DNA of 64,000 nt. It comes from Massalongia carnosa (Eukaryota). The stretch lies in NCBI GenBank assembly GCA_965645245.1, contig OZ287080.1, positions 1-64,000 of the forward strand, given 5' to 3'. Position 1 is the stretch's first letter, and each line of letters starts with the position of its first letter. The notes under the pieces were generated by a model. It was not told the origin of the DNA, searched no databases, and saw only the letters and a list, made by a program, of their open reading frames with translations. Shown here piece after piece: positions 1 to 18,500 of the stretch. Both the position numbers and the translations under genes were made by a program.

Positions 1-169
1 ACCCTAACCCTAACCCTAACCCTAACCCTAACCCTAACCCTAACCCTAACCCTAACCCTAACCCTAACCCTAACCCTAACCCTAACCCTAACCCTAACCC
101 TAACCCTAACCCTAACCCTAACCCTAACCCTAACCCTAACCCTAACCCTAACCCTAACCCTAACCCTAA
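1..169. repeat. Telomeric repeat (CCCTAA)n, left chromosome end
   Basis: Uninterrupted CCCTAA array from base 1 to 169, C-rich strand on +. Confidence 0.99.
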
Positions 170-1188
170 GTGCTAAGGAACTGCGTGTTCAAGTATCACG
201 GCCTACCTAACTCCATAGTCACCGATCGGGGCTCGCTATTTACATCAAACTTCTGGTCATCCCTATGCTATTACATGAAAATAAAGCGTAGGCTAAGCAC
301 AGCCTTCCATCCACAAACAGACGGTCAGACAGAACGTCAAAATAGTACCATGGAAGCTAACCTTAGGTCTTACTGCCGTTTCGAGCAAGATGACTGGGTG
401 CAATGGCTCCCTACCGCTGAATTTGCATACAATAACACCCGTCATTCAAGCACCAAGCTCACCCCGTTCGAGGCTAATATAGGCTACCACCCAAGGATGA
501 GTTATGAAGATAACCAAGACCCTCGATCGAAGTCGAAGACAGCTGAGGAACAGGCTAAAAATCTACGCGATTTGTTAGCAGAGTTGAAAAATAACCTGCA
601 ATTAGCCCAAGACAATCAAGCCAAATATCACAATAGAACGGTGAAAGAACGTTGCTACGCTCCCGATGATATGGTTTGGCTAAACAGCAAACATATTAAG
701 ACGAAAGGAACAAGAAGCTTGAGCATAAGTTCTTGGGTCCCTTTAAGGTGTTGAGGCCTGTAGGCACTCAAGCTTACGAGCTAGAACTTCCGAAAAGTTG
801 GAAAATACACCCAGTCTTTCATGTGTCTCTGCTGGAAAGAGACACCACTAGAAGGGAGGTAGTAGACGAACAAATGGCTGAACAGCTTGAATTCGAAGAC
901 GATGACATGCAAGAGTATGAAGTAGAGTGCATACGAGATAGTGCAGTCTATGCAAAAGAAGCAGAAGACGGACGACCGGCTGGATTATATTATCTAGTGC
1001 ATTGGAAAGGTTATCCCGACGCGGAAGACACATGGGAGCCCGTCGCCGGCGTCAAACATCTACGAAAGCTATTGAGGGAATTTCATGAGAAAAATCCTAC
1101 CAAGCCAACAGCAAAGTCCACCCCTCAGGCCACTAGGACTCCCTCATTAGCGAAAGAAACAGAACGACGCACAAAGAGGACTAAATAA
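170..1188 (+). pseudogene. pol: 5'-truncated Ty3/gypsy pol: integrase core and chromodomain, frameshifted near 700-750
   Basis: IVTDRGSLFTS and STAFHPQTDGQTERQN integrase motifs; GPF and IHPVFHVSLL; chromodomain YYLVHWKGY...DTWEP; split over ORFs 170-754 and 733-1188. Confidence 0.93.
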
Positions 1189-1565
1189 GGCCAGCACTCT
1201 TTTCCTACCACCTGCCCACGAAAAAAGGTTGGAGGTTTTTAATGAGGCTGCGCTAGGAGCTCAGCAATGTGTTGCAGTAACGTCATGCTCGATTCCATCC
1301 AGGCCAGTAGCTCTTTTCCTAGCACCTTCCCTAGAAGGGAGGTGGGAGGTTTTTAATGAGGCTGAGCCAGAGCATCAAGTTATGTTATCCTAATATCTTC
1401 CAAGCTCTTACAAATCCCAACTCTTGCTAGCCTGCATTCAAGCGGCCATCGACGTTAAAGCCATCGGCACGATTAACCGCTTGCAATTACCACGCGATGA
1501 TGGGCTGAACGCACGAACTACCTGGGATGAATTTCGCAGGAGCTCATTACTAGAAGGGAGGTAAT

Positions 1566-2063
1566 TGTAATAGCGCGGCAATACAGGACTGCGCTAGCTC
1601 CTGGGATGACTCACCCAAGAAGACCGGGTGACTGATAATCCGGATGCTTGGTCATGATAAGGCGGATAGCAATACTAAGCCATCAGCAATCAGCCTTACC
1701 AGTTTGTTAGGCAGCAACTGAAGCTATTCAGATAAGCCTCGATCTCATGGGAGGCCTGGGACGCCTAGGAGACCTCAGCTGAAGGCAACAAGGCTATCTG
1801 CTAGACCTCAGCTGAAGGCAACAAGGTTATCTGCTAGACCTCAGCTGAAGGCAGCAAGGCTATCTACTAGACCTCAGCTGAAGGCAACAAGGCAGACAGG
1901 TAACCAGACAAGTAGTTAGTAAATAGGACCCCAAGGGGTATATAGAAAGCTCGATTCCCATCTTCAGGGAATCAGCTTTTAGCTTTAGCACCTACCAATC
2001 TATTAGCAGTCACACTGAGCATTATAACCCATAAGGACTAGTGTCTACTGTCCCTCTTATACA
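1566..2063 (+). mobile_element. 3' LTR of the telomere-truncated gypsy element
   Basis: TGTAA...TATACA termini; preceded by polypurine tract AGAAGGGAGG (~1552-1561); TATA-like TATATA near 1938; interrupts the ORF to its right. Confidence 0.85.
1771..1893 (+). repeat. 33-bp tandem repeat (about 4 copies) within the LTR
   Basis: GACCTCAGCTGAAGGCAACAAGGCTATCTGCTA units start at 1771, 1804, 1837 and 1870. Confidence 0.9.
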
Positions 2064-2657
2064 GCCTCGCGACCCTGGGCTTGATGATCTACTACGTCGT
2101 CATCTTCTGGCTCGTCGTCTGCCGCCGCGCCATTAGCTGCCGACTCGACACTCTGTCCAGCCATCAGCTCTTCAAGCTCATCTAGGCTTTTCTGCCGGAT
2201 CTCCTCGAGCATCTTCAGCCTCGGTCGATTCCCACGCTCCCAGAGAGGCTCGAGTCCCCCATATCCTATGCTCATCTTTCCGGCAACCCAGAAATCCTCC
2301 TGCCCACTGGCCAGGACCCCCTCCACCTTGAATGCGGCTAGGAGCTGTGCCCTGCCCCATCGCGGCTCTTCCTGGGAACGTCCAAATGTTTGTGCCCGGG
2401 CACGGCTCAAAAGACTATACAGCGTTGAAGGAGGGTGCTTGAACGGGACTTCGGCATGCGCTGGGTCTGCGTAGACCATCGAGAACCACATTATCTGCCG
2501 CCTAAGTCCCCGGCTCTGACTGGTCTTGGTCGACGTAATGAGACCCCGATTAGACGGGTATGGAAGGATCCAGTGCGTCAGCCGGATGAGGTGTAAAAAG
2601 TCATCAAGCCATCGATCCGCCCGGCCGTACCCAAGACGCTGTTCTAGCATCACGAAC

Positions 2658-2919
2658 TGATGAATAGTAAAATTCACGTGTAGGTATAATAGCATGATTG
2701 TCATTGAAGGTAATTATCTATGTGGGCTGTCTACCTGCTTTTATAGCAGTCACATAACAGTAATGCTGTAGGCCTCCCATAGCTGCCTGTTAGGCACCTC
2801 CATATCTGCCTGTTAGGCACCTCTTATAGATGCCTGGCAGGCACCCGTGGGACTCACGATGGATGCCTATATTGATGGTAGCCTAACCATCTAACCGATG
2901 GTAGCCTCACCATTTAACA
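2658..2919 (-). mobile_element. Solo LTR (262 bp), TSD CGAAC
   Basis: TG...CA ends; CGAAC at 2653-2657 and 2920-2924; about 55 bp at one end is the reverse complement of 3827-3881. Confidence 0.9.
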
Positions 2920-3637
2920 CGAACGTCTTGTTCAGGATCACGCGGTATGGCTTGTTACCCCAGCCACGCCGCTCTTCCTCATCGGATAGGAATAGGAAGT
3001 TGAGGAGACCTATAGCCTTGTCGAACCGCATCTTGTTCCCGGTGACCATGTGCGGTGAACCTGGCTGTCCAGTAACTGCGTCGACTAGGAACATCCTCTT
3101 CATGTCACGGTAGCAGCAGAACCTAAACTCTGCAGGCGGCTTTGCACCTTCGCGTCTTAGCTCCTTAGTCTGCTTTTTGATATTGTGCATGGCCTTCCAG
3201 ATATCTGCGTCAAACTGCTCGAGGTTAAGAACGTGAAGGTACTCCAGCCAGGACTTCAGCAATCGAGGGTTCTCCTGCACATTGTACCTCTCATACCATG
3301 ACGCCGCTTGGTTGAAACGAATGAAGACGTCGCGGAGATCCTTTACTGCTCTCCACCTCCGCTTATACTCCTTGTGCATAAGCATGTTCCCAACCAGGAT
3401 GTTCTCACCATGTGGTGCTGCTAGTCGCCACGTCTCCCAGTTGATCTTAGGCTTGAACCACCCTAACCCGGATAGCTCTATACTCTCCTTCATCCCGAGT
3501 CCTTCCTTGACGATGGTCTTCCCTCCTCGTACAACCCTCCACCGGTCCTTAAACAGTAGGGACTCTCGCGCCAGCATATTTCCACCGTAGCAGAAGCGGA
3601 GTCCCCGCAGCGCAACAACCATGATGATGGTCTCAGA

Positions 3638-3881
3638 TGTCAGATGGTAAGGACTACCATCATGGGCATTCATCAAGTGCTTATCTTCGGCGACTCTACC
3701 ACGGGGACCGAGGTGACCTCCGGGGACCGAGATTCAGTGGACCGGCTGACTCATTATTAAAAGGGTCGCCGAAAGGTCTCCAATGTGACTGCTATATAAT
3801 GCAGTAGATAGCTGACATATAATTCATACCTTCAATGACAATCATGCTATTATACCTACACGTGAATTTTACTATTCATCA
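3638..3881 (+). mobile_element. Solo LTR (244 bp), TSD TCAG(A/G), related to 2658-2919
   Basis: TGTCAGA...TCATCA; TCAGA at 3633-3637 and TCAGG at 3882-3886; removal restores YSLPETIIMVV. Confidence 0.88.
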
Positions 3882-6637
3882 TCAGGCAAGGAGTACGTCT
3901 TAGCTGTGTGGGCAAGAACATGCTCGAACAGGAAGCAGTATTTATTGATCTGGGCGTGGAGGAGGCATACAAAGTCGATTGTAGGTACAATGTAATATGC
4001 CAGTGGAGACGGGGTGTCTGCTATGTCGTCTGCGTCGTAGAGGTCCACTGGTTCCACTGTTCATATATCTCCTCCATCATGCTTAGTGATATCCGATGTT
4101 CTTCCCTCACTCCATAAGACTTCCAGCGACTGTCCATGAGGTTTGCATGAGCCCGCTTCTTGCTGTGGAGATAGGCAAACTCGCACACACCCCTAGAGAA
4201 CGTGATACCTCCACCCTCCTGTTGCAGAGAACGCACATATCCAGGGTCCAGGTCTAGGTTCTCCACCGAGTCGTTAGTAAAGACGTACACTTTCGAAGAG
4301 TCGAATAAAGTCTTGGCGAGCATATAGAATGAGAATCTATTAGCCCGTCCTTGGTCTCGTCCCCCTGCGGTGCAGCAAACAGCGTCTGGCTCATCGTATC
4401 TCGCATGGTAGCCCAGGAGTATACAGTACGCTTCGGGTTCCCTTTAGCCTTGCTTCCATCCGGGTTGAGGACCATCCTCGTCCTGCAATACTCATCTAGG
4501 CAGCACTTCTTCCACAGGAACACCTCGGCTTCGTGGTTCTCTGGTTTCTGATTATAAGGAAGCGCGCTGTCCTGTGAGGTGATCTGCTTTGCAATGTCCA
4601 CAAAGGTGCGATCTGGGTTGTAGAATTCCGGATCTGCTGCATCCAGCCACTGCCTCTTCCAGCCATTGTATGCTTCGACCAAACCAGTAGAGTCATTAGT
4701 TGCCAGCTTGGTGTTCTTGGAATGCGTGAACAGTGTTGCGCCTTGGAACCGATGAAACCCAGGATTCTCATCTATGGTCCTACCAACCAAGGTCCAGAGC
4801 TCATCGAAGTACCGCGGCTGGATCGTATGGGCAACTAACTGCTGGTTGGCAGACTCCTTCCGTTTGAGGCTCTCTGCAGATATCGCCGTGTATGCAAGGT
4901 CGGCTATGCGAGAAGAAGCCGGATAGTTCAGCAGTATGTTGGAAGACTTAACAACCTTGGTGATACAGGGAAGGAGGATGCCATCCAACCAGAGCTGCTC
5001 GTCGCGCTTACTGAGATACGAGGTATGCTCATGATCGCTTTCTTTGTGCAGGGCGGGAAAGTAGATAAACATGAGAAGATCGCTCATGCCAACCAAGCGC
5101 CCAAAGCAGTAGTGGGATATCTTATGCAGCGGGATATATCTTAGGAATGGATTGTTCATGATCGTGGAACCAGGGACCTTCAACCCAAAGTGTATGTCGC
5201 CCGTGAGATTGAGGACGGGATGGGCCTTGGGGAACCACTCTATCCCACGACGGGCAAACCCGAGACTCTGGGGGAAACAACAGGTGCTGTCGATGTCAAA
5301 ACTGACCCTTGATTGACGATTCTTCCGACTTGTAACGTGTTTCTTGGACAGGCAAAGACTCGGAGGTAGTCCATCATTATGGGGAGTGGCTTCGTCCAGG
5401 CGAGCACTAGCAGTGCCTTCGAATGCCGCCTTGTAGCCGACACCCTGGATATCGGTTGCTCTCATCAGTCGGGGACTTTTGAGGACATCGGGAAGCGGAG
5501 TGCCCCCATTGTGTAACCCTTTAACAATGGAAGTAATATCAGGTATGGATGAGCACTCTGAGTGCACACCTCGGCGTCGGTGGTGTTCTTCATGCTGGCG
5601 ATCGGCTTCGGTATGCTGCTCATGAGTGCAGCACCGGAATTTACGTAGCTACTTGGCCAGCTTAGAGGATGTGCTCTCTAGTTTACCAGGGCTCGGATTT
5701 GCGATGTGGGCACTCTGCGCGCTACGCGGTGCCTGCTGTACTGCTGGTTGTGGACTTTGGCCTAGGGGGGGTTCTCTTGAAGGCACGGGTGGTGGTGCTT
5801 CGACGGATCCAGCAGGTTGATGAAGATCTGAGGGCGTAGGTGTAGATATAGCAATGCTTGGAGATGGGCGTGAAGTGGGCGAAGTAGGGTTAGAATCGAC
5901 ACCTGTCAAAGGCTTCATCCATGATAATAGCGTGTTTCTCTGCGTTGGGAACGAAGTCCCACGTCTACTACTGACTGGTGCTACTTGACTGAGCCTTGGA
6001 AGTCCTGCTGTGACTGCGTTGTGTATCTGCAGTATGCGGTGAACTGCCCTGTTGTATATCTGTATTCGGTGGACTATGAATTGGTGTGCTGTTGTGTCTA
6101 GGTGCTGATGATTCGACATCACTAAACTGCTGGGCGGCGTAGTCAGAATACAGTGACCCGGTCTTGCTGCTCTCCTACCTCTCTTGTTGCCCAATTCGTA
6201 GTGCCTGGAGCACTTCTGCTGCCTCGAGATGGGCTGCCGACTCCTCCAAGCGTGCCGTGACCTCCACATCATAGTCTGCGTCTTCAATATTTGTCACCTT
6301 CTCTGTGCATATTTTCTCAACTTGTCGAATGATTTCGGGCTCCTCGTGTAGGGTATTTGGAGTTGCAGTTCGAGGGGGTTATCCTGGGTTAGGTATGCTT
6401 CGGGTTCAAGCTCTTCCTCACAGTCTTCTACTATATCGCGATCCGGGGGGGTTGGTATGTCTGGGCTGCTTCGCAGACCAATGGCACGCAGGGTGTAGCT
6501 AGGAATATCGGATGTAGGTAGAGGCTCGTAGGCAACAAAGTCGGCGGAACCTGCAAGACCAACTGGGCGCGATGGATTGTGGTAATAGCCTCGATTCTGC
6601 CGTCTCTTGGCCACTGCAGCTTCATCAGCAGTAGAGT

Positions 6638-7126
6638 ACTTTCGAGGCCTACCACATAATTTTTTCAATGTCTCCGTAGAAGGCATGATCGGGAAGAGTG
6701 ACGCTAAGCAGTCGAAGTCCTAGAGATGAGGAATTTAGGAAAAAACCCTATTTCGGTTAGCGCGGTAGGTGACACGAGAAAACATCAATAAAATCCACCA
6801 GAACGGCAGCTAAGAATGTAAAATCAATGACAGGTCTAAGTTACTCATCGCATGATCACATTATTCACATCATCGCATGATCGATCACTTCTCGTAGTTA
6901 GGATTTGGATTAATATGAGAAATACAGGAAAAAACCCGAATTCGGTTAGCGCGGTACCGTGCTCCAGCAGACATGACATCTCCTCTTTGAATCATCAAAA
7001 CGCAACCAACAATGCTTACAATGGTTAACGACTGAATGAGAATGACGGTTGAAGTCCTTGCCGATTGATTGCGCCGAAATAATCCTCCACTTGTGTTCTA
7101 GCCTTCACCCCGGATTCCGACATGAT
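6638..7126 (-). repeat. 5' end, promoter region and ORF start of unclassified element copy A; direct repeat of 15027-15520
   Basis: About 490 bp of strong identity with 15027-15520, ending at ...CCGGATTCCGACAT(G/C)AT; two AAAACCC..TTCGGTTAGCGCG subterminal repeats. Confidence 0.9.
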
Positions 7127-10100
7127 GTCGCCAATACGGCTCCGAGTCGAGGTGCTCACTCAAGCATGCCCGGCGGCACTCCTGCCCGAGGAGGTAGCGG
7201 TGCAGCGCTCTTCTCTCGACCGCGGTACTCTCAGCGGCTTGCGGCTTCCATGTAGGTGAGAGGAGGACTAGCGAGTACGCCTCCTTTCTATCCCGCCCGG
7301 CCCGACCAGACTCAGGGGCGAAGTCGACTAAAGACGACGGCTCCCTGACATGCACAACTAAACAAACGTGGGCATAGTCGAAGCCAGCGCTTAGTGCAGA
7401 TGTGGCCACCATGTACGGCTGGTCCGAGGAGGCAAGCCACATTCTCAGCAGCTCCTCCTTCTGCTCAGCCGTGCCTATATCAGCTGTGTACTGGGAGCAG
7501 CAGAGTAGCTCAGCCAGCGTAGCAGCATCTTCCTTTGTCCGAACGTATAAGATAATCTTATCTCGAGCCCGATCCAAGAGCTGGCTATTCTCCTACGCCT
7601 CCCTTGCCCTCCGCGCGCCCTCTTCGAGCAGACTCCCTCGCCCAGTGGCCCACTGTACCATATAGAACAGATTTCGCCGGTTCGTCGATGCTCGAATCAC
7701 CTTGGGGTTCACCAAGTTGTTCTGCTCTTCAAATCTAGCTTGTATTGTCGGTGGTAGAGTAGCTGTTAAGTAAACAAACTGCGTACGGACGTTGAGGATC
7801 AGGGCGAGGTCAACCATAGCCTCACGATAGTCGGACGCTGTGATAGTCAAGTGAGCCTCGTCCAATACAATGCGCCCGAGGTCTTGCGTAGCCGCGAGCT
7901 TGTGGGCCTAAGTCCGAAACTGTTCCGTACATGCTGCTTCAACTGTGACAAACACCAAAGGCGCATCTCTTTGCTCGCTAGGCGACCACACCGAGTAATC
8001 GATCCCCAATTCTCCAACTCGGTGGAGGAGATCTCCTCGTAAAGATACGAGTGGCAAGACCAAGATCGTCACCCCAGCGTCCGGGAGGATGCAAGGCAGC
8101 ATGAAGAGCAGGCTCTTCCCTTCGCCAGTAGCCATGATAACTACTACCTGCTTAGTCCATGACATGATAGTAGTCATAGCCCGCTCCTGCGCTGCTGACT
8201 TCCACTTCAGCGTGTTATCTAGGTGCAGCTTTCTTGCACTGTTCAGCAGAGCCGCAGCTGACCACTTCTTCCGTGGCCGGTAGACCCCCATGGCGATCTT
8301 CTTGAGCATTTGCGGACCACCAATGTCTTCACCATCCCGCTTCCTCTTCCCAGCAGGTCCAAGCAGCTGGTCAAGCCTCCAGAAGTCCTTTTACAGAGTT
8401 GAAGCACGCAGATTTCGGCGGATAAGGCCATCCCACACGTTCCCAAAGTTAGCATTGTGTTGGTTTGCATATGCCCGGTTGACAGTCCGCGTACTATGGT
8501 TCCGCTGCTTGGTCATAATCCGAATGTCCGCCTCGATCTCTTCGGCATCCTCGTTGTTAGCCCCCTCGTCAACCTCAAAGCACCCAACGTCAGCTGCAAA
8601 CTTAGTTTTGACGATATTGACCGTCATCTGCCGCCAGTTGGCAATGTGTAGCCGGGGGACGCTGGCCCGACTACACGCCTGCTCCATGCACCGCGTGAGC
8701 CGGTTGTCAGCCCAGACCTTGCCGTCTTGCCACCACAAGTATGGAGAGATAAGGGCATGCGGGGCAGACCGGCGGAGGAAGACCTAGAGGAGCGGGACTA
8801 CAACTACCAAGTAGTCCAGCAAGAGGTCTCCAATAGGTGCAGGCAAGAACCGGATATTATCCTTAAACTTGCCCGTCTGCTGCTGACCTTTGTGGTATGT
8901 GGTGTGCAGCATGACTAGCCCGTGCTTGAGGTAGACGCTTCGCCGCCGCTGGGTGTTACGCCAGGTGACGGAGAACAGTTCGCTCTCGCGCAGAGTCTGG
9001 CCAGAGCCCATGTGGATCAAGACTAAGAGCCTTTTCAGGAACTCGTTAGCCACGGCCTCATATCGTTCAATCGCTTTCTCCCGCCAGACCTTAGCGCCAT
9101 CCGCGTTGGCATCCAGGAACGAGTCCCGCAACGGCTTCGAGGCTTGGATAACGGTTAGCAAAGACCTCGCCAGTGGCTTTACCAGCTCAACCTTCACCCG
9201 GTGCTGGCCAAAGAACCAGCCAAAGGCATCGGCGTCTAAGTTGTCCTTTAATGCCCAAGCACGCATCCGCGGAAGGTTCTGGGTCCCGAACATCAGCTCG
9301 TCGTAGAGTAGGTGCTGGGCTTGCTGGAACTCGGAGAGTAAGAGCCGCGGCACGTGATCCATATGCAAATAAACGTCTCGGTAGGTCAGGACCTTCTCGT
9401 CCACATCCCACTGCGCTTGGTGCGGCCCAATAACCGCCTTCGAGACAGTAAACAGCAGCAAGCGCCAGCCGAGGATCTCGCCCATAGGAGTCTCGGTGTC
9501 CTGCTTCAAGAACTGCCCGCAATACTGCTCAATGCGCTCGAGTGTATCCCCTAGCTCCGCCTTCTCCAGACAGGCGCTGGCGTGGAAGATGATTAGCTGC
9601 ACAATCCAGATTACGCCAGACAAGCAGCTATTGTAATTGCCCGGCTCCTTCCAAGTCTTGGTGTGTGGCTTGACGCTGAGCATGGCGCAGAAGCTGAGCA
9701 GTGAGGAGCTTTACCGATTGCCTCCAAATTCGTGGCAGATCAGCGCCATTGAGAGCACCGACATGGCCTTTCTCAGCGCAGGCCCTTCTTGCTCGACGGC
9801 ACTTTGGAAAGCCACTTCCCACGCATTCTCCTGAGCACCCGTGAGCTGGATATGGCTCTCGGGGGTCCGCTGGTCGCTGTCGGCCGCGGTGAAGTGGTCG
9901 CCCCGGTAGGCCACCCGGTAGCTGTAGGTCAAGAACTGCTTCCAGTAGCCGAAGTTGGTCTTGAGCGTATTAGGCTCCTTCTTCGGGTCGAACGCGCGTC
10001 TTCTGCCCTGGGGCAGCGGCAGTATGGAAGCGGCTCAACGCCAGCTGCCGTGGCCAGGTCAGCATGCAGTCGGGGCCATCGAAGCACCAGCTGTGCACCT

Positions 10101-10842
10101 CTAGAAAGATCTCGTCCATCACCTCTAGCATCAGGAACAGCTCGGGCTCGCTCTCGGCAGCCTTCGGTACTGCAAAAGAGGCGTGCATCTCGTCCTTCTT
10201 TAAGCCCCGCGTGTGCTCCTCGATGCCCGTCCGTCTCAACCACGGCACCACAGCGGATCGGTGGCCATCGACGCCATGAACGAGGTTGGCCTCTGCCTTA
10301 GCATCCTCCTCTGCAACAGCGGCGTCCTGGTCGAGCAGCTGAAAGAAGTCTTCGCCCCCTGAACCCAAGCTATCAGCGCTCCTGTATCCGGAGCTCCCTG
10401 GCGCCTCGGCTCTTCCCTCATCCTCTACCACAAAATACCGAACTAAGCGATTCTCGGCAAAGAAAGTCTGGAGTTTGCAAGACCGCCAGAGGGGGTTCTT
10501 CTTATGCCATGCAGGCTTGATTTGGTGGGCTTTTGACACGTGCCGTTCGATAGCTTGGAGGCTTTGGGTAAGACCAGACGCGCAGGTCAAGCACTGGAAA
10601 CCGTCGAGAAGCCGTAATCCGGGGATCGAGTGGGCCGGCAGCTGCGCGAGCTCCGGCTCCGGCGCGCAGAGGTCGTAGCTCTCGAACAGCTCGACCTGGG
10701 CCTGGAGCTCGGGGCCCTTCAAGCAATGCGGTGCTTGCCTCAGGTGCCGAACCCAAACGCCGCGACCGGGACGGAGGCCAAAGCCGCACTCTTCACACAC
10801 CAGCACCCGCCATTCCGGCAGATAGACAAAACGGGCGCTCAT
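7127..10842 (-). pseudogene. Telomere-linked helicase (TLH-like): N-terminal DUF3505-like Zn region, central tyrosine-recombinase-like region, RecQ helicase; frameshifted and 3'-truncated
   Basis: RVLVCEEC...HLR and CLTC...ERHVSKAH at the N-terminus; helicase motifs MATGEGKS, LPLVSL, DEAH, LTATLPP, VATSALSAGFD, ESGRAGRD and CRR..LS.HLD; subtelomeric position. Confidence 0.88.
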
Positions 10843-11055
10843 GATCCTCTCCCTATGCCCTAGCCGCTTCTCAGCTCCCTCGTGGGGCGATTAGAGGTCG
10901 CGTTGCCAGCGACGGGGATTCTCGTGTTATGGTGCACGTTTTACGGTGCAGCGGTGCGTGCCGACGCCGAAGCGGAGGGAAATCAGCCAATCACACCTTA
11001 CGCGTTTCGTGTTACGCCGCACAACGGGCGATTTCTACAGGCAGATCGTACCAGA

Positions 11056-11100
11056 GGGCTCCTCATGCAGGAAATTTGGAGTTGCAGTTCGAGGGGGGTT
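11056..11100 (-). repeat. Short remnant of the unclassified-element ORF (copy B), homologous to 6337-6380
   Basis: GGGCTCCTCATGCAGGAAATTTGGAGTTGCAGTTCGAGGGGGGTT versus GGGCTCCTCGTGTAGGGTATTTGGAGTTGCAGTTCGAGGGGGTT. Confidence 0.85.
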
Positions 11101-11112
11101 AGGGTTAGGGTT
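11096..11112 (+). repeat. Short interstitial telomeric tract GGGTTAGGGTTAGGGTT
   Basis: Almost three TTAGGG units exactly at the junction between the copy B remnant and the end of the YR gene. Confidence 0.75.
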
Positions 11113-12118
11113 TCAAATTGAATAGTGAGGCCTGGGACGTCTGAAAGTATAGCTGAAACGCGTTTGATGACCATCTTCCGAGTCTCTGAATACTCTCATC
11201 CAGCATCCCGTGGTCGGCGGCGTGTTGTGCTGCTCCTTTTCTGAAGCTGTATCCCGAGTATGCCGAGTCGTTGATGCCGGCGGCTATCAGTCTCTTTTTC
11301 AGGGATGCTATGACGGAGGCTCTGGTGAATGCGGTGCCGAGACGAAAAAGCGGGGATGTAGATGGCTGAGGATCATTTCTGAAAAGACGCCGTAGTGCTG
11401 TCACGGGGCAAGTGCTCTCATTGGTCGCTGCCAGCACTATCTGAACTCCTGAGTGATTTGTGTCTGTTTTGCTTCTTTTGAGACGTAATGTCGCGTATTG
11501 ATCGTTCTCGGCGAATGAGATGTCACCTCGTGTAGGTTTCAATCTCTGAAAAGATGTCTTCTGACGATCGGCGACAGTGTAGGTGATTTCCCCGAGTCTG
11601 AGGAACCCTGCCCATGCAACTTTGAATGTCGCGTCGATGTTGAGGTCTTCGGCCGAATGAGCGGGAATACTGGTGATTTTTGTCAGTAATTCTTTTGAAA
11701 TTGGTAGGCGTCTTCTTTTTGTCTGAGAAAAGATCCTTTTTCCCCCTTTCAGCATCAATTGAAGTCTCGGCCCCTCGAATGGGGTGAGGCCGTATCCTCG
11801 GTCTACATGGTATGATTTGAGGCCGGCGAGGTAGCTCGCTGCCGTCTCTGGTTTTATCTTTCCCTGCTTGGGTGTGCCGCCCCCGTATAGTCGACCGGCT
11901 AGCCATTCCTCGAGGGACTCGGTTGTTGCAGGCCACGACGTGCGTCCCGTCGTCGCGCAGAATGCCTCGTATGAGTCGATCGCCGTCCCGTACCCTTTTC
12001 TCGTGTCCGCCGAGTGTCCGTGCCAGACGAGGCGTTTTACCAGGGTTGACCCTGGTGTGGAGGATAGGTAGGTGGAGGGAGGTTGACCGAATTGTATGGG
12101 TTCTGCCAATGAGGGCAA
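11105..12118 (-). CDS. Tyrosine recombinase of Ngaro-like element
   Basis: AGFLRLGE, LKRSKTD, YSGYSFRKGAA and LGRWSSNAFQLY motifs. Confidence 0.92.
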   Translation of the reverse strand: MPSLAEPIQFGQPPSTYLSSTPGSTLVKRLVWHGHSADTRKGYGTAIDSYEAFCATTGRTSWPATTESLEEWLAGRLYGGGTPKQGKIKPETAASYLAGLKSYHVDRGYGLTPFEGPRLQLMLKGGKRIFSQTKRRRLPISKELLTKITSIPAHSAEDLNIDATFKVAWAGFLRLGEITYTVADRQKTSFQRLKPTRGDISFAENDQYATLRLKRSKTDTNHSGVQIVLAATNESTCPVTALRRLFRNDPQPSTSPLFRLGTAFTRASVIASLKKRLIAAGINDSAYSGYSFRKGAAQHAADHGMLDESIQRLGRWSSNAFQLYFQTSQASLFNLKP

Positions 12119-14121
12119 AAGTTAGCCAATCTTTCATCATCAAAACGTGACAGGGCGTCTGCTAGTCCATTGGAAGTGCCACTGATCCATTGACAACGTA
12201 GTACGATGTCCCACTTTGCAGCTATGGACAGTATTTCTCGTAGAGGCGCGTTGGCCGGTCCCTTGAGGGTTAGAGTCGTGAATCCTGTGTATGCTGTGTT
12301 GCTGTCGGTAAAGACAAGGATCTGTCGATGTCGCCATGTCGGCGCCCATTTCTGAAGGATTAGAAGGATAGCCTCGACTTCTCGGACGTTTATGCTCGGT
12401 GATTCTTCCTGATTGAGGACTAGGACTCGGGCCCTACATGCGTTTTTTTGATTCACGAGCTCGTTGTCTTGTTGAAAATAGCCTCCGAGACCCGTGAGGC
12501 ATGCATCCGTATGCACCTTGATCGTGTCTCGTGTTGACGTCTCGAAGAAGACAATACCGTTGAAGTCCACTAAAAGTTTGTTCCACCAGATGAGATCCTG
12601 TCTGACCCATGTGGGAATTCTTCTTTTGACCCGACGATGACTGCCCGAGGGAAATGAGGCTATAAAATTCCAGAATAATCGTAAGAAGACTCGGCCCAAT
12701 TTGACTGCCTGTGCGCAGAAGCTTAGGAAGCCCGCTATTGACTGCATGTCGCCGAGGCTGATTGTCGTCTCGTTTAGTGCCTTTGTAGTGATGATTCTCG
12801 CTTTTTCCAGCTTGTCCGCTGGCAGACGAATAAGACTGTTGATGGTGTCGACCTCGAGTCCGAAGACTGTCGCTGTCGTTCCCTCGGCGTCTTTTGAGTC
12901 GTTTCTCGGGATGCCGAGAATGTCGGTGAGAATGTTGTAGGCTTTTGTTTCTTGGTGCAATCGTTCTGACGATGTCTCGGATGGGAAAATTGCAACGAAG
13001 TCGTCTAGATAGTGATGTAATCTCCATTGTAGAAAGGATTCCAAAATCCAATGAAAGCCTTCCGCAAAAAGATTGAAGATGAACGGGGCCGTCGACAGTC
13101 CAAACGAAAGGCATGTCTCGGTGTAGAATTCGTCATTCCATCCGAAACCCAGAAACCATTGATGATGAGGTGCGACGGGAACGTTTCGAAAGGCGTCTTT
13201 GACGTCTCTTTTCACTGTGACAGCACCTTTGCCCTCTGACAGAATCAATTGAATAATGTCGTCGAGTCTGGCGTATTGTAATTTGGATGCCTCTTCTGGA
13301 ATGTTGTCGTTGACTGATGTTTGATTGGGATGAGACAGATGATGAATGCGTCGCCATCCTCCGTCATGTTTCGGGACCAAGCCGAGGGGGGAGGCCACAA
13401 ATAGCTGACTCGGGGCGGCTATTCGTCTGACTCGGCCATTCCTGAGGTCCTCTTGAAGCATATTCTCGATCGTTTCCGGGTCCTCATTCGCTGATGTCAG
13501 ATTTTTTTCGATCCGAAGGATGTCTGTGGGGCCTTCGTATCCGATTTGTACTCCGAAACGAAGGATCATGGGTAGATGGACTCGGAGGGGGCCCGGATAC
13601 TCTTGAAGTAGGGTTGCCCATGCGGACGGTACGAGGGGAGATGGGCTGTCTTTCAAACGCTGACGAGATGCGTCTACGAGTTGAAACGAAGGGATTGTAT
13701 TTGGTCTGATTGGTGCAGGTAAGCAGGGATGGGACGTCATGAATTCAGCTATTGAAGCTATTCTACTGCCTCCTGCACCAACCCCTATTTCTTCGTTGGG
13801 CATGTCTTCTGGCCATGCCCAGCCGCGCCGCACGATTTGCATTTGTGCTGTCGGTAGCACGACGGCCAGGTGCAGGTGCCGCTGTTGTACTTGTCGCAGA
13901 TTTCCCCCGCTGCCTTCTCGGCCCTCTCGGCCCTGTCTCCTCTCGGGGTCGGTCGTCGGGACGGCGGGGATCGTGAGCGGCGACGGCGTAGGACTGTCAG
14001 GGGGGTGCAGAATCGAGCTTGGAATTCGTCGGGCATTTTCCATTGGGATGCGTCGGATGGCTGAGACGCGATGATGTGGGTGTGGGTTTCGATGGCGAGG
14101 GGGAGGACTGCTTCCTGCCAC
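12037..14121 (-). CDS. pol: Reverse transcriptase-RNaseH of Ngaro-like element (true start probably near 13740-13800)
   Basis: SPLGLVPKHDGGWRRIHHLS, DVKDAFR, LSFGLSTAPFIF, HYLDDF, TDAC, FTDS and NGLADALSR. Confidence 0.93.
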   Translation of the reverse strand: MAGSSPPPRHRNPHPHHRVSAIRRIPMENARRIPSSILHPPDSPTPSPLTIPAVPTTDPERRQGREGREGSGGNLRQVQQRHLHLAVVLPTAQMQIVRRGWAWPEDMPNEEIGVGAGGSRIASIAEFMTSHPCLPAPIRPNTIPSFQLVDASRQRLKDSPSPLVPSAWATLLQEYPGPLRVHLPMILRFGVQIGYEGPTDILRIEKNLTSANEDPETIENMLQEDLRNGRVRRIAAPSQLFVASPLGLVPKHDGGWRRIHHLSHPNQTSVNDNIPEEASKLQYARLDDIIQLILSEGKGAVTVKRDVKDAFRNVPVAPHHQWFLGFGWNDEFYTETCLSFGLSTAPFIFNLFAEGFHWILESFLQWRLHHYLDDFVAIFPSETSSERLHQETKAYNILTDILGIPRNDSKDAEGTTATVFGLEVDTINSLIRLPADKLEKARIITTKALNETTISLGDMQSIAGFLSFCAQAVKLGRVFLRLFWNFIASFPSGSHRRVKRRIPTWVRQDLIWWNKLLVDFNGIVFFETSTRDTIKVHTDACLTGLGGYFQQDNELVNQKNACRARVLVLNQEESPSINVREVEAILLILQKWAPTWRHRQILVFTDSNTAYTGFTTLTLKGPANAPLREILSIAAKWDIVLRCQWISGTSNGLADALSRFDDERLANFCPHWQNPYNSVNLPPPTYPPHQGQPW

Positions 14122-14822
14122 TCGTACACCTTGGCCAGCGTGAGGATTTTTCCGTGGAATGCCGACATGGTGGCGTGAAGCTGTTGACTCGATTTCCCGA
14201 AAAGACTGACCATGATCGAGGTGTAGTTGATGAAGCTCTCGGTCCAGACGTCATGAACTGTCTTTCCGAAATCTTTGTAGGTCCCGGATGCCTTTCTCAA
14301 CCTCAAGGCGCCGTCTTCGATGCCGATGCGGTCTTGATCCTTGTATGACTCGTATTGCATGCCGTGCATGTGTCGGAGGCGGGAGAGGTTGATGGCTTTG
14401 AATTTATTTGAAAAGATCTTGATGATCTCGTCCTGTGGTAGGCCCGCGAAACGGGGTGCTATGCTTCTTACTTCGAGAGGGGTCTCACCTAGGTCTTCGT
14501 CGTCATCGCCGACGACACGACTCGGCTTGCCAGCAGGAATGACGGCCGCTATTCGGGCGTCAGATTCTCGGCGCATGCAGTCGATTTCTAGCTGCATTTT
14601 TTCCACCTCCTTCTCGGCGACCAATGCCTTGGACTCGGCAATTCTAGCCTCAGCCTCGGCCGCCTTCGCTTCCGCCTCGGCTTTCTTCTTTTGTAGGGCG
14701 AAGATTTGATTGGATTGGGCCTGCGTCAATCCGACAATCTTCTGGGGGTCGGGGACTATGTCGTCCATCAAGGTGCTTTGGGAAAGGGTGTTCGTCATTG
14801 GGAGGTAGGGGCACCGAGACAA
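13785..14822 (-). CDS. gag: gag-like ORF1 of Ngaro-like element
   Basis: Coiled-coil N-terminus; C-terminal C..YN...C...C...H.C..C....H....C zinc finger; lies upstream of and overlaps RT. Confidence 0.8.
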   Translation of the reverse strand: MSRCPYLPMTNTLSQSTLMDDIVPDPQKIVGLTQAQSNQIFALQKKKAEAEAKAAEAEARIAESKALVAEKEVEKMQLEIDCMRRESDARIAAVIPAGKPSRVVGDDDEDLGETPLEVRSIAPRFAGLPQDEIIKIFSNKFKAINLSRLRHMHGMQYESYKDQDRIGIEDGALRLRKASGTYKDFGKTVHDVWTESFINYTSIMVSLFGKSSQQLHATMSAFHGKILTLAKVYEWQEAVLPLAIETHTHIIASQPSDASQWKMPDEFQARFCTPLTVLRRRRSRSPPSRRPTPRGDRAERAEKAAGEICDKYNSGTCTWPSCYRQHKCKSCGAAGHGQKTCPTKK

Positions 14823-15026
14823 CGTGAGGTCGACGACGAGTCAGTGAGATTGGAAAAGCAGCAAGCACTGACAGCGAGGTAGGGGCACCGAGACATCGTG
14901 GGGTCGACGACGAGTCAGTGAGATGGATGAGGCCGAGTGAGAAGAAGTAAATGATGAAAGAATTTTCAGAGGGTGATTCTTAATTTACTTTGACTCAGGG
15001 GCCTCACGTGACATAGAACCATCTCA

Positions 15027-15520
15027 ACTTTCGAGGCCTACCACATAATTTTTTCAATGACTCCGTAGAAGGCATGATCGAGGAAAAGTGAAGCTGAGCA
15101 GTCGAAGTTCTAGAGATGAGGAATTTAGGAAAAAACCCTAATTCGGTTAGCGCGGTAGGTGACACGAGAAAAGAACGGCGGCTAAGAATGTAAAATCAAT
15201 GACAGGTCTAAGTTACTCATCGCATGATCTCATCGCATGATCACATTATTCACATCATCGCATGATCGATCACTTCTCGTAGTTAGGATTAGGATTCGCA
15301 TGAGAAATACAGGAAAAAACCCGAATTCGGTTAGCGCGCTATGGTGCTCCGGCAGAATCAAGTGACATTACTTCTCCTCTTTGAATTATCACAACGCAAC
15401 CAATAACGCTTACAATGGTTAACGACGGAATGAGAATGATGATTGAAGTCCTTGCCGATCGATTGCGCCGAAAAAATCCACCACTTGTGTTCTAACCTTC
15501 ACCCCGGATTCCGACATCAT
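15027..15520 (-). mobile_element. 5' end of unclassified element copy B, inserted into the ORF of copy C
   Basis: Direct repeat of 6638-7126; interrupts copy C at WYDKY|. Confidence 0.85.
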
Positions 15521-18500
15521 ATACTTATCATACCAGGACTTTGCCTGGTTGAAACGGACGTAGAAGTCCCGGAGATCTTTGACTGCCCTCCACCTCCGTT
15601 TGTTTTCCTCGTGCATGAGCATGTTTCCTACCAGGATGTTCTCACCATGCGGTGCTGCTAGCCTCCATGTCGCCCAGTCGAACTTGGGGAGGAACCAGCC
15701 AATTCCGCAGCGCTCGATGGTCTTCTTCATCCCGAGACCCTCTTTGACGAGGACCTTCTGGCCACGCATCTGCTGCCAGTGATCCTTGAAAAGGAGCGAT
15801 TCTCGCTCGAGTAAATTACTGCCGTAGCAGAACCGGAGTACTCGCAGTGCAACGACCATCACGATCGTCTCAGGTAAGGAATAGGTCTTCGCTGTGTTGG
15901 CCAGGGTGTGCTCGAAGAGAAAGCAGTACTTATTGATCTGGGCATAGAGGAAGGCGAGAAGGTCACGCGTGGGGATAATATAATACGGCAACGGAGACCG
16001 TCTATCGTCGATATCGTCGGCATCGTAGAGGTCCCATTGCCACCATTGCTCATAGATCTCCTCCATCATGGTCAGAGAAATCCGATGCTCTTCTCTCGTG
16101 CCGTACGATCTCTAGCGGTTGTCGAGGAGATTTGCATAGTCCCGCTTCTAACCATGCAGGTAGGCAAATTCGCACACGCCCTTGGAGAAGATAACGGAAC
16201 TACCCTCTTATTGCAGAGACCTTTCATATCCGGGATCTAGTGCGAGGTTTTCTACCGAGTCGTTGTCAAAGACGTACACCTTCGTCGAGTCAAAAGGCGT
16301 CTTGATCAGCGCATAGAACTGGGAATATATCAGTCCATCTCGGCATTCAACTCCCTGCGGTGCAGCGAAGAATGTTTGGCCTACTGTATCTCGCATAGTG
16401 GCCCAAGGATATACGGTAGGTTTTAGGTTCCCTTTTGCTTTGCTACCATCTGGATTAAGAGTTGTGCGGGTCCTAGAGTATGCGTAAAGGCAGCACTTCC
16501 TCCACAGGAACGTTTCAGCCTCGTGATCGTCGGGGATCTGGTCATACGACAATGCAGAATCCTCAGATGTGGTCTGCTTTGCCAGGTCGACATACGTACG
16601 ATCCTTATTGTATAAATCCGGATCGGTTGCCTCCGACCAGCGCCATTCCCACATATTATATGCATCGGTCAAGCCAGGCCTGCTGAACTCGAGCTTGGTG
16701 TTCTTGTCGTGTGTGAAGAGCGTCGCACCTTGGAATCGATGGAAGCCTGGATTCTCCTCGATGGTCTCCTGGATGGCCGTCCAGAGTAGGTCAAGGTACT
16801 TTGGCTGTATGGCGTGCTTGAGAAGCTGCTCACGCGCAGACTCTTTCCGTGCGAGGCCTTCGGAAGAGACAGCAGTAGCGTCCAGGCTGGCGACACGAGA
16901 AGACGCAGGATAGTGTAGCAGGATATTGGAAGATCCAACGACCTTGGTGACTGAAGGAAGTACAATAGCATCCGTCCAGAGCTGCTGGTCATGCTTGCTC
17001 AGGTAGGTAGAGTGCTCATAGTCACTCTCTTCATAAAGCGCAGGAAAGAAGACGAATACAAGAAGCTCGCTCATTCCAATCACGCTACCAAAGCAGTAGT
17101 GCGGAACCTTGTGCAGCGGAGCATATCTCTCAGACGGCCTGCCATTGGCCGTGTATCCGCGGACCTTCAGGCCAAAATTAATGTCCGCCGTAAGGTTGAG
17201 GAAAGGGTGGACTCTAGGAAACCAGTCGACACCTCGGCGTGCGAATCCAAGGCTGGTTGGGAAACAACATGTGCTGTCAATATCGAACGCAACCCTAGGA
17301 CGGCGGTTCTTACGGCTGGCTATATGGTGCTGGTTGAGACAGAGGTTACGGGGGAGTTCCTGCTCCCTTGCCTCAGCATCTCCCAAAGCTGCTTTTACAC
17401 TAGTGCCCTCGAACGCAGCCTGGCAGTCGGCGCCAGGGATATCGGTAGCCCTCATGAGCTTGCTGTTACTGAAGACATCCGGCAGTGGCCTTCCTCCGGC
17501 ATGGCTCCCCCGAAGCATCGAGGTAATCCCCGGAATAGAGAAGCACTCTGAATGTACATCGGGGCGTTGGTGATGTGCCTGGTGCTTGCGTTCTGCCTCT
17601 GCATGTTCCTCGTGTGTACAGCCCTGAAATTTCCGGAGCTGCTTGGCTAGCTGTAAAGCCGTCCGCTCTGGTAGAGGAGAATCAGTATTCGTAGGATCTA
17701 AGCCGTCATGTAATACCCTAGGTCTGGCTGGCGTGGGCACCTCGCCAGGGATTGGGTCAGCCGCCAAGGGGGGGGTTGTAGGCAGTGCCTCCGCTTGCTC
17801 ACGCCCGTATAGTGGCTGAGGCAAAGGCAAAAGCGAAGGAAAGCTGGGGGGTAGGCATCGAGTCGCCGGGGGATGCTTGGCAGTAGTGTCTAAGCCTGGC
17901 CTTACCCATGATAAGAGGGTGTTTTTCTGCGCCGGAAAAGACGCGCTCTTACTCCGTCGGCTTTGTTTTCCACTTGATGCAGACTGAGGGGTTATGCTAT
18001 TGCTGTTGTCATTGCTGCGGGGCGCATTCTGCTGTGATCTCTGCAACTTTATTGTAGATCTATTAGGTTCCCGGGCTTTGCTAAGCTCTTGTTGTACGCC
18101 CAAATCAAAATTCTCAAACTCCTAGAGGATGTAATCAGAATCATGTGACTTTGTCTCAATCCTCGCCCGTCCGCTGCCGTGTAGTACATTCGGGGTGTTC
18201 ATAGCTTCCGAGTCGCCAGTCGCCATTGCCTTTACTCGCGCTGCAATTTCGGCATCATACTCTTCCTCTTCGCCGTCGCCGGCTTGCTCGTCGATTTGTA
18301 TCTGCTTGATACGTCCTATAACTTCTGCCTCTTCCGGCGTGCTTGGTAGGCAAAGCCTGTGACATGGGCTGGGCAGTTGTGATAATCGAGAATCGGGTAC
18401 TCTGTTATTATGTTCTCACCAGAGTCAGGCGGGATTCAAATATCCAGACTTATTCGGAGCCCAATCTCGGGCCGCGTGCTGGCAGGAGCTCCGGACGATA

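Follow-up and report, generated by a model that had tools for sequence, protein, structure and literature searches.

A predicted tyrosine-recombinase-like domain upstream of the RecQ-type helicase in a subtelomeric TLH gene of Massalongia carnosa

Genes for telomere-linked RecQ-like helicases (TLH) have been on record from the ends of fungal chromosomes for over twenty years, and they reportedly also occur in a choanoflagellate. The TLH domain of these proteins is said to have been defined by Rehmeyer et al. 2009. In the available text of a preprint, the domain was described as conserved and the function of the protein as undetermined (bioRxiv 10.1101/2024.02.27.582403). In the accessible parts of other publications, the Magnaporthe TLH was placed with its 3' end toward the telomere (PMC1635262), and the gene was reported as present or absent between Botrytis strains (bioRxiv 10.1101/2022.03.07.483234). 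No statement of the TLH domain as recombinase-type was found in the full-text literature within reach, which did not include figures, supplements and Rehmeyer et al. 2009. Here, we analysed a TLH gene in the first 64,000 nt of contig OZ287080.1 of Massalongia carnosa (assembly GCA_965645245.1, forward strand), hereafter called the window. Predicted structures showed that the ~230-residue TLH domain upstream of its RecQ-type helicase has a tyrosine-recombinase/type IB topoisomerase fold, closest to Cre/Xer. As modelled, the domain was also shown to keep a candidate Arg-Lys-Arg-His-Tyr set in canonical order and within canonical secondary-structure elements.

The left end of the window is a true chromosome end, because it carries a terminal (CCCTAA)n array (Table 1). 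The TLH gene lies ~7 kb from this end, with its ATG at 10842 and its 3' end toward the telomere. An intact relative of 1439 amino acids (aa), P0002, matched it in two tblastn segments, with an overall identity of 91%. Residues 1-282 aligned to window 10842-9994 in frame -2, and residues 277-1239 to 10013-7125 in frame -3. C2H2 fingers, a TLH domain, a RecQ-type helicase and a subtelomeric position were all found, in agreement with an earlier reading of this DNA from its letters alone (the sequence-only reading), which had called the gene TLH-type. The best PDB sequence matches of the P0002 helicase part were RECQ5 (E 1.5e-25), BLM, RECQ1, WRN and E. coli RecQ. According to Pfam, ~440 residues separate the zinc-finger N-terminus from the DEAD and Helicase_C domains. 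A tyrosine-recombinase-like motif set had been proposed in this interval, and it indeed has PF12013 on one side and DEAD/Helicase_C on the other.

Residues are numbered here after P0001, the minus-strand frame of window 7098-10034, with stops read as X. All four strings quoted for the motif set were in this frame: GSGQTLRESEL from residue 343, TTYHKG from residue 378, LHIANWRQ from residue 462 and QRNHSTRTVNRAY from residue 510. The codons of the five candidate catalytic residues (R349, K382, R468, H513 and Y522) all fall within 8460-9020, and H513 stands nine residues before Y522, as had been claimed. When the domain was shuffled 1000 times, a loosely spaced, ordered R..K..R..[HW]..Y pattern arose 892 times, and 16 of the 25 window open reading frames (ORFs) of at least 250 aa contain it as well. 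On its own, the list of motifs therefore carries no weight.

With the 439-residue middle region as query, 238 proteins of similar length were matched. A profile search of 1.84 billion representatives gave 2753 clusters (50% identity) at E <=1e-3 and 1326 at E <=1e-10, and by this measure the TLH family is large. Stand-alone or bridging relatives were sought with the domain profile among 5.8 billion proteins. This gave 185 matches; the 120 listed were TLH family only, and neither Phage_integrase nor DUF3435 was found in any of these 120. One domain-profile relative was named 'atp-dependent dna helicase tlh1' at its source.

For conservation, we used a close set of 87 relatives (identity at least 44%) and a distant set of 54 representatives (23-74%, median 29%). 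The sequence-only reading had staked itself on the conservation of the five residues, and conserved they were, in 85-87 of the close and 51-53 of the distant relatives (counts per residue in Table 1). Only 17 of 560 aligned positions were at least 90% identical among the distant representatives (F332, L333, P347, R349, E352, N360, R365, Y380, K382, R395, P414, L433, W441, R468, H513, Y522 and W548), and all five candidates were included. This comparison is a fair test, because the five residues had been chosen without any alignment. E352 was present in 53 of the 54 distant representatives; H463, which lies within LHIANWRQ, was kept in only 9.

The same residues were followed in metagenome DNA. 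Among 77 loci, 59 covered the five codons, with R-K-R-H-Y in 51. Six of the eight departing loci had 5-18 stops. Stops occurred in 26 of the 59 loci, so TLH copies are often decayed. One locus (L005) carries two diverged TLH paralogues in tandem and in the same orientation (2897-7282 and 7430-11230), both without stops and with the full R-K-R-H-Y; the upstream paralogue is complete at 1461 aa, and its downstream partner extends beyond the listed frame. The alignments thus showed an R-K-R-H-Y set that, to judge from its conservation, is under strong constraint in the TLH domain.

Two template-free AlphaFold2 models were computed. Model 1 covered window 8391-9710 (439 aa, 78-row alignment). Its mean predicted local distance difference test score (pLDDT) was 76.1, and residues 110-370 were mostly above 85. 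Model 2 covered window 8355-9107 (251 aa, 99-row alignment including the distant set), with a mean pLDDT of 90.1 and a predicted template modelling score (pTM) of 0.86. From the N-terminus, model 2 has a long helix, R40 starting a short helix, strands 58-61 and 64-71, K73, and strand 82-87. Helices, a helix with R159, an acidic loop, helices with H204 and Y213, and a final helix follow. This order of elements corresponds to the canonical topology of a recombinase catalytic domain such as that of Cre.

In the predicted fold, helices surround a three-stranded sheet and the Tyr is on a C-terminal helix. K382 lies directly after strand 64-71 of model 2 and before strand 82-87. The candidate residues have canonical placements: Arg I starts the helix after the long helix, Lys probably lies by the beta2-beta3 hairpin, Arg II is in a helix, and His is nine residues before Tyr.

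Comparison of the fold with known structures had been proposed together with the motif set. Both models matched tyrosine recombinases and type IB topoisomerases almost exclusively. Foldseek, run against 350,542 PDB chains, placed XerH and Cre at ranks 1-7 for model 1 (E 0.04-0.26). With model 2, XerA, Cre, XerH or Tre filled the top 22 rows of the listing (ranks 1-28), with E values from 8.8e-3 and probabilities up to 1.00. VIA-align, which is independent of Foldseek, was run against 48,161 representative chains, and again returned almost exclusively these two enzyme groups for both models. In a protein-language-model search, the nearest named clusters were NDC10_II, Phage_integrase, DUF3435 and ResT-TelK_cat, at 0.83-0.85, which is below the tool's reliable level. 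The ESM Atlas, searched with a whole 548-aa relative, gave unnamed clusters only.

Profile comparison with hhalign set a TLH catalytic profile of 142 rows against a recombinase profile made of 13 E. coli K-12 recombinases (found with PF00589) and Cre. The score was 30.6 (P 0.0015), with 154-189 columns aligned. Reversed columns scored 11.4, and 20 column shuffles reached a maximum of 19.4 (mean 13.1), so the real score was above all 21 controls. All five hhalign settings paired R349 with Cre R173, E352 with E176 and N360 with D184. Four of them also paired H513 with Cre W315 and Y522 with Y324; the fifth setting (Viterbi) did not reach H513/Y522. Only in the Viterbi alignment did R468 fall on Cre R292, and A465 on H289.

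The structural alignments gave equivalences of their own. Counted from the end of the alignment with Cre, model-1 R360 stands 11 residues in, exactly as Cre R292 does (numbering verified), and the range ends place R468 within 0-3 residues of Cre R292. Model-2 R40 is within 0-3 residues of the Arg I of Cre and presumably also of that of XerH, lambda Int, XerD, Flp and three topoisomerases. An Arg I that starts a helix (R-x-x-E), an Arg II, and a His/Trp position ~9 residues before the Tyr, as in the superfamily, were all found in the domain.

Several results weigh against a recombinase-type domain. In model 1, the last 65 residues, H513 and Y522 included, had a pLDDT below 50, and in model 2 the helices with H513 and Y522 had only 71-84. 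The Foldseek E values were weak (best 0.009-0.04, none below 1e-3), and the template modelling scores were low, at 0.25-0.42 (0.28-0.42 for model 2). The hhalign probability was only 16.5%. The realigned hhalign comparison placed R468 on Cre R270, not on R292. K382 fell opposite a gap in hhalign, owing to the longer hairpin of TLH. A comparison with Cre alone, based on a mixed full-length alignment, was noise. A comparison with 120 DIRS-type recombinases, the family encoded next door, was noise too (probability 0.6-1.2%). A non-significant local alignment before Arg II was the only suggestive piece. The His of the H-x-x-R motif is absent, position 465 being A in 56 and S in 30 of the 87 close relatives.

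Sequence-family searches point the same way. In Pfam, neither the window pieces nor 39 diverse members (E up to 10) had a match on the domain; Phage_integrase (PF00589) and DUF3435 (PF11917) matched neither the window segments nor these members at that threshold. None of the 8 proteins compared with PHROGs had a relevant match, and a sequence-profile search of the PDB with the domain gave 0 matches at E up to 10. Also on the opposing side, a recombination site, terminal repeats and target duplications of a TLH 'element' were sought and not found. DNA homology to the closest metagenome loci (81-92%) covers the coding region only (7126-10843), with the start codon as its limit on one side and the truncation point on the other.

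The sequence-only reading had taken the gene for a recombinase-helicase fusion rather than a simple helicase, and the predicted fold and the residue conservation support this view. On balance, the TLH domain is probably a catalytic domain of Cre/Xer type that is joined to a RecQ-type helicase, and catalysis and a role in end exchange are proposed for it. The fold and the conserved residues suggest that the TLH family may cut and rejoin DNA besides unwinding it. In intact members, the Tyr would attack a DNA phosphodiester to give a covalent 3'-phosphotyrosyl intermediate; stabilisation of the transition state would fall to R, K, R and H. The zinc fingers and the 3'-5' motor of RecQ type in the same protein would deliver or remodel the substrate, for example by unwinding, by branch migration or by handling G-rich telomeric DNA. 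As the most likely role, strand exchange would spread or rebuild TLH-bearing subtelomeric blocks among chromosome ends, and TLH would be the recombinase-helicase of a selfish, end-restricted element. A selfish-element or recombination-based end-repair role is favoured, because the family is multi-copy, end-restricted, often decayed, and present or absent between strains of a single species.

A wider proposal is more tentative. TLH might be the single-protein machinery of an unrecognised class of eukaryotic mobile or end-maintenance elements, which would recombine TLH-bearing blocks onto chromosome ends. This is possible, and we regard it as doubtful. Such machinery would account for four traits of the family: its many copies, its strict confinement to subtelomeres, its patchy presence among strains and its induction upon telomerase failure.

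The main rivals are an active swivel and an inactive DNA-binding module. As a type IB topoisomerase-like swivel, the domain would nick and religate, and so relieve the torsional stress of its own helicase, with no strand exchange between partners. By analogy, such a protein would be functionally comparable to RecQ-Top3 or reverse gyrase. Type IB topoisomerases were among the structural matches of both models; the similarity of TLH to those of vaccinia/variola, Deinococcus, Leishmania and human is below that to recombinases, and TLH has none of the topoisomerase-specific N-terminal domains. We give the swivel a small chance. As a catalytically dead recombinase-fold module, comparable to the kinetochore protein Ndc10 and domesticated Crypton recombinases, the domain would only target the helicase to subtelomeric DNA. 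Such a module would have no need for a Tyr plus a His nine residues before it, yet the five candidates stand in 51-53 of the 54 distant representatives, among the few positions that reach 90%, and departures from R-K-R-H-Y are mostly in stop-bearing copies (6 of 8). We consider a dead module improbable as well.

A telomere resolvase of the ResT/TelK/TelA type, making or opening hairpin ends at fungal telomeres, would suit a telomere-linked gene family and the ResT-TelK_cat lead (0.83) of the language-model search, and ResT itself, in the accessible text, combines recombinase chemistry with RecQ-like unwinding (PMC5388405). As the closest kind, it was rejected after the structural search of 48,161 chains, and a resolvase is unlikely in the extreme. 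A chance motif on an unrelated helical domain is hardly credible, for all that the loose pattern arises in most shuffles and that no hidden Markov model library recognises the domain.

A Cre/Xer-like domain with conserved Arg-Lys-Arg-His-Tyr would make the question of TLH function open to direct experiment. A recombinase of this kind would also offer a concrete mechanism by which subtelomeric blocks could pass from one end to another or be restored in the absence of telomerase. The recombinase superfamily, in turn, would gain an architecture of tyrosine recombinase plus superfamily 2 (SF2) helicase.

The window copy itself is a pseudogene, as had been stated. It has one frameshift, five in-frame stops (9711-13 and those in Table 1) and a truncated 3' end. 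Homology to P0002 stops at residue 1239 (window 7126), ~200 codons before the normal end. Two of the 17 near-invariant positions are lost (P347T and W548stop). The GC content across the gene is 55-61%, and an AT-rich signature of repeat-induced point mutation (RIP) is absent; given this GC content, the gene is not heavily RIP-mutated. The C-terminus of the family consensus (~200 residues, P0002 and relatives) is cysteine-rich, with several CxxC-like pairs, and is absent from the window copy. Its sequence resembles that of an additional zinc-binding module, placed C-terminal to the helicase.

An interstitial TTAGGGTTAGGG sits between the TLH start codon and the 3' end of a DIRS-like element. 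Because it runs opposite to the terminal array, the two enclose the block 170-11110 in the manner of a small linear molecule. The telomere-like dimer is not common to the relatives in position or orientation, and at least 2 telomere units were present in 7 of the 77 loci. TLH is subtelomeric in relatives too: in L003 and L011, terminal TTAGGG arrays lie downstream of it. A stretch of 63-70 nt with 82-84% identity was found ~85-150 bp upstream of the TLH start in L004 (4641-4709), L005 (7298-7360), L015 (6502-6571) and L006 (98-160), and was not detected by blastn in the window copy. Some relatives share a whole upstream paralogue with one another; that of L005 is also in L004.

The DIRS-like tyrosine-recombinase retrotransposon occupies window 11105-14840 on the minus strand, with three long open frames. 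TLH stands next to its recombinase, and two different recombinase-type genes are therefore ~260 bp apart. Direct repeats of 91-97% identity flank the block of TLH and the DIRS-like element, and the TLH gene is truncated exactly at the edge of the left repeat copy. Another repeat pair (74-81%) is from an unclassified repeated element with a 464-aa ORF (4254-5648, no Pfam). The repeats lie at 6692-7126 / 15082-15520 and at 3285-4779 / 15522-16766.

Table 1 Position of the TLH pseudogene, its domains and candidate residues, and neighbouring features in the window. Residue counts give close and distant relatives.
Feature	Position	Strand	Remarks
Terminal telomere array (CCCTAA)n	2..169		
TLH (telomere-linked RecQ-like helicase) pseudogene	7126..10842	minus	tblastn with P0002
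RecQ-type SF2 helicase core (DEAD + Helicase_C)	7290..8195	minus	Pfam; stops at 7908-10 and 7593-95
Tyrosine-recombinase-like catalytic domain (predicted), the 'TLH domain' of the literature	8355..9107	minus	
In-frame TAA	8391..8393	minus	in place of near-invariant W548
Y522, candidate nucleophilic tyrosine	8469..8471	minus	86/87 close, 52/54 distant
H513, candidate H/W position	8496..8498	minus	85/87 close, 51/54 distant
R468, candidate Arg II	8631..8633	minus	in W-R-Q; 87/87 close, 53/54 distant
In-frame TAG	8784..8786	minus	within the recombinase-like domain; Q in relatives
K382, candidate catalytic Lys	8889..8891	minus	just past strand beta2; 86/87 close, 52/54 distant
R349, candidate Arg I	8988..8990	minus	in R-x-x-E (RESE); 87/87 close, 51/54 distant
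Helical N-terminal part of the conserved TLH region	9108..9993	minus	model 1 residues 1-200: generic helical matches only
Frameshift, frame -2 to frame -3	9994..10013	minus	overlap of the two tblastn segments; translations
OrsD-type double C2H2 zinc-finger domain, N-terminal	10522..10833	minus	PF12013, E 3.6e-13, residues 4-107 of the 9970-10842 frame
Interstitial TTAGGGTTAGGG	11099..11110	plus	257 bp upstream of the TLH start codon; orientation opposite to the terminal array
DIRS-like recombinase	11105-12121	minus	338 aa; only weak Phage_integrase matches, E 0.04-0.09; 293 relatives, best 97% identity
DIRS-like reverse transcriptase + RNase H	12037-14250	minus	RVT_1, E 1.4e-11
DIRS-like gag-like ORF	13785-14840	minus	351 aa; no Pfam

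The TLH gene family itself is already known; what is new is the fusion, with its predicted domain of tyrosine-recombinase type. The window gene belongs to this family, alongside Magnaporthe TLH1, S. pombe Tlh1/2, Ustilago UTASa and the Fusarium and Botrytis TLHs. As far as the available text describes them, it resembles these genes in its two C2H2 fingers, TLH domain, RecQ motifs and subtelomeric position, with the 3' end telomere-ward as in M. oryzae. The TLH literature differs from our account in that a recombinase fold is not mentioned in its available text. Cre/Xer-type recombinases (archaeal XerA 4a8e/5hxy, XerH 5jjv, XerD 1a0p, Cre 1kbu/4crx) are the closest fold relatives. Unlike these, the TLH domain has no Pfam Phage_integrase match and no His three residues before Arg II, and has an acidic loop of ~20 residues between Arg II and His. 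It also belongs to a eukaryotic, subtelomeric protein of ~1440 aa, in which zinc fingers and a RecQ-type helicase are fused to it.

Cryptons, DIRS/Ngaro elements and the DUF3435 'Captain' of Starships bring the same enzyme superfamily into fungi as selfish multi-copy elements; we know of none with a fused helicase. DUF3435 was among the language-model leads, at 0.83. The DIRS-type recombinase 260 bp away from TLH has no detectable profile similarity to the TLH domain. Helitron Rep/Hel joins a DNA-cleaving covalent-tyrosine enzyme and a helicase in a single protein of a eukaryotic mobile element, and is an analogy only. It differs from TLH in its HUH nuclease fold and Pif1-type helicase, and the folds are unrelated. 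To our knowledge, the architecture of a tyrosine recombinase with an SF2 helicase has no precedent. At chromosome ends, Borrelia ResT is described in the accessible text as a telomere enzyme of tyrosine-recombinase type with an added RecQ-like ability to unwind DNA 3'-5' (PMC5388405). ResT is the nearest functional precedent for a recombinase combined with RecQ-like unwinding at chromosome ends.

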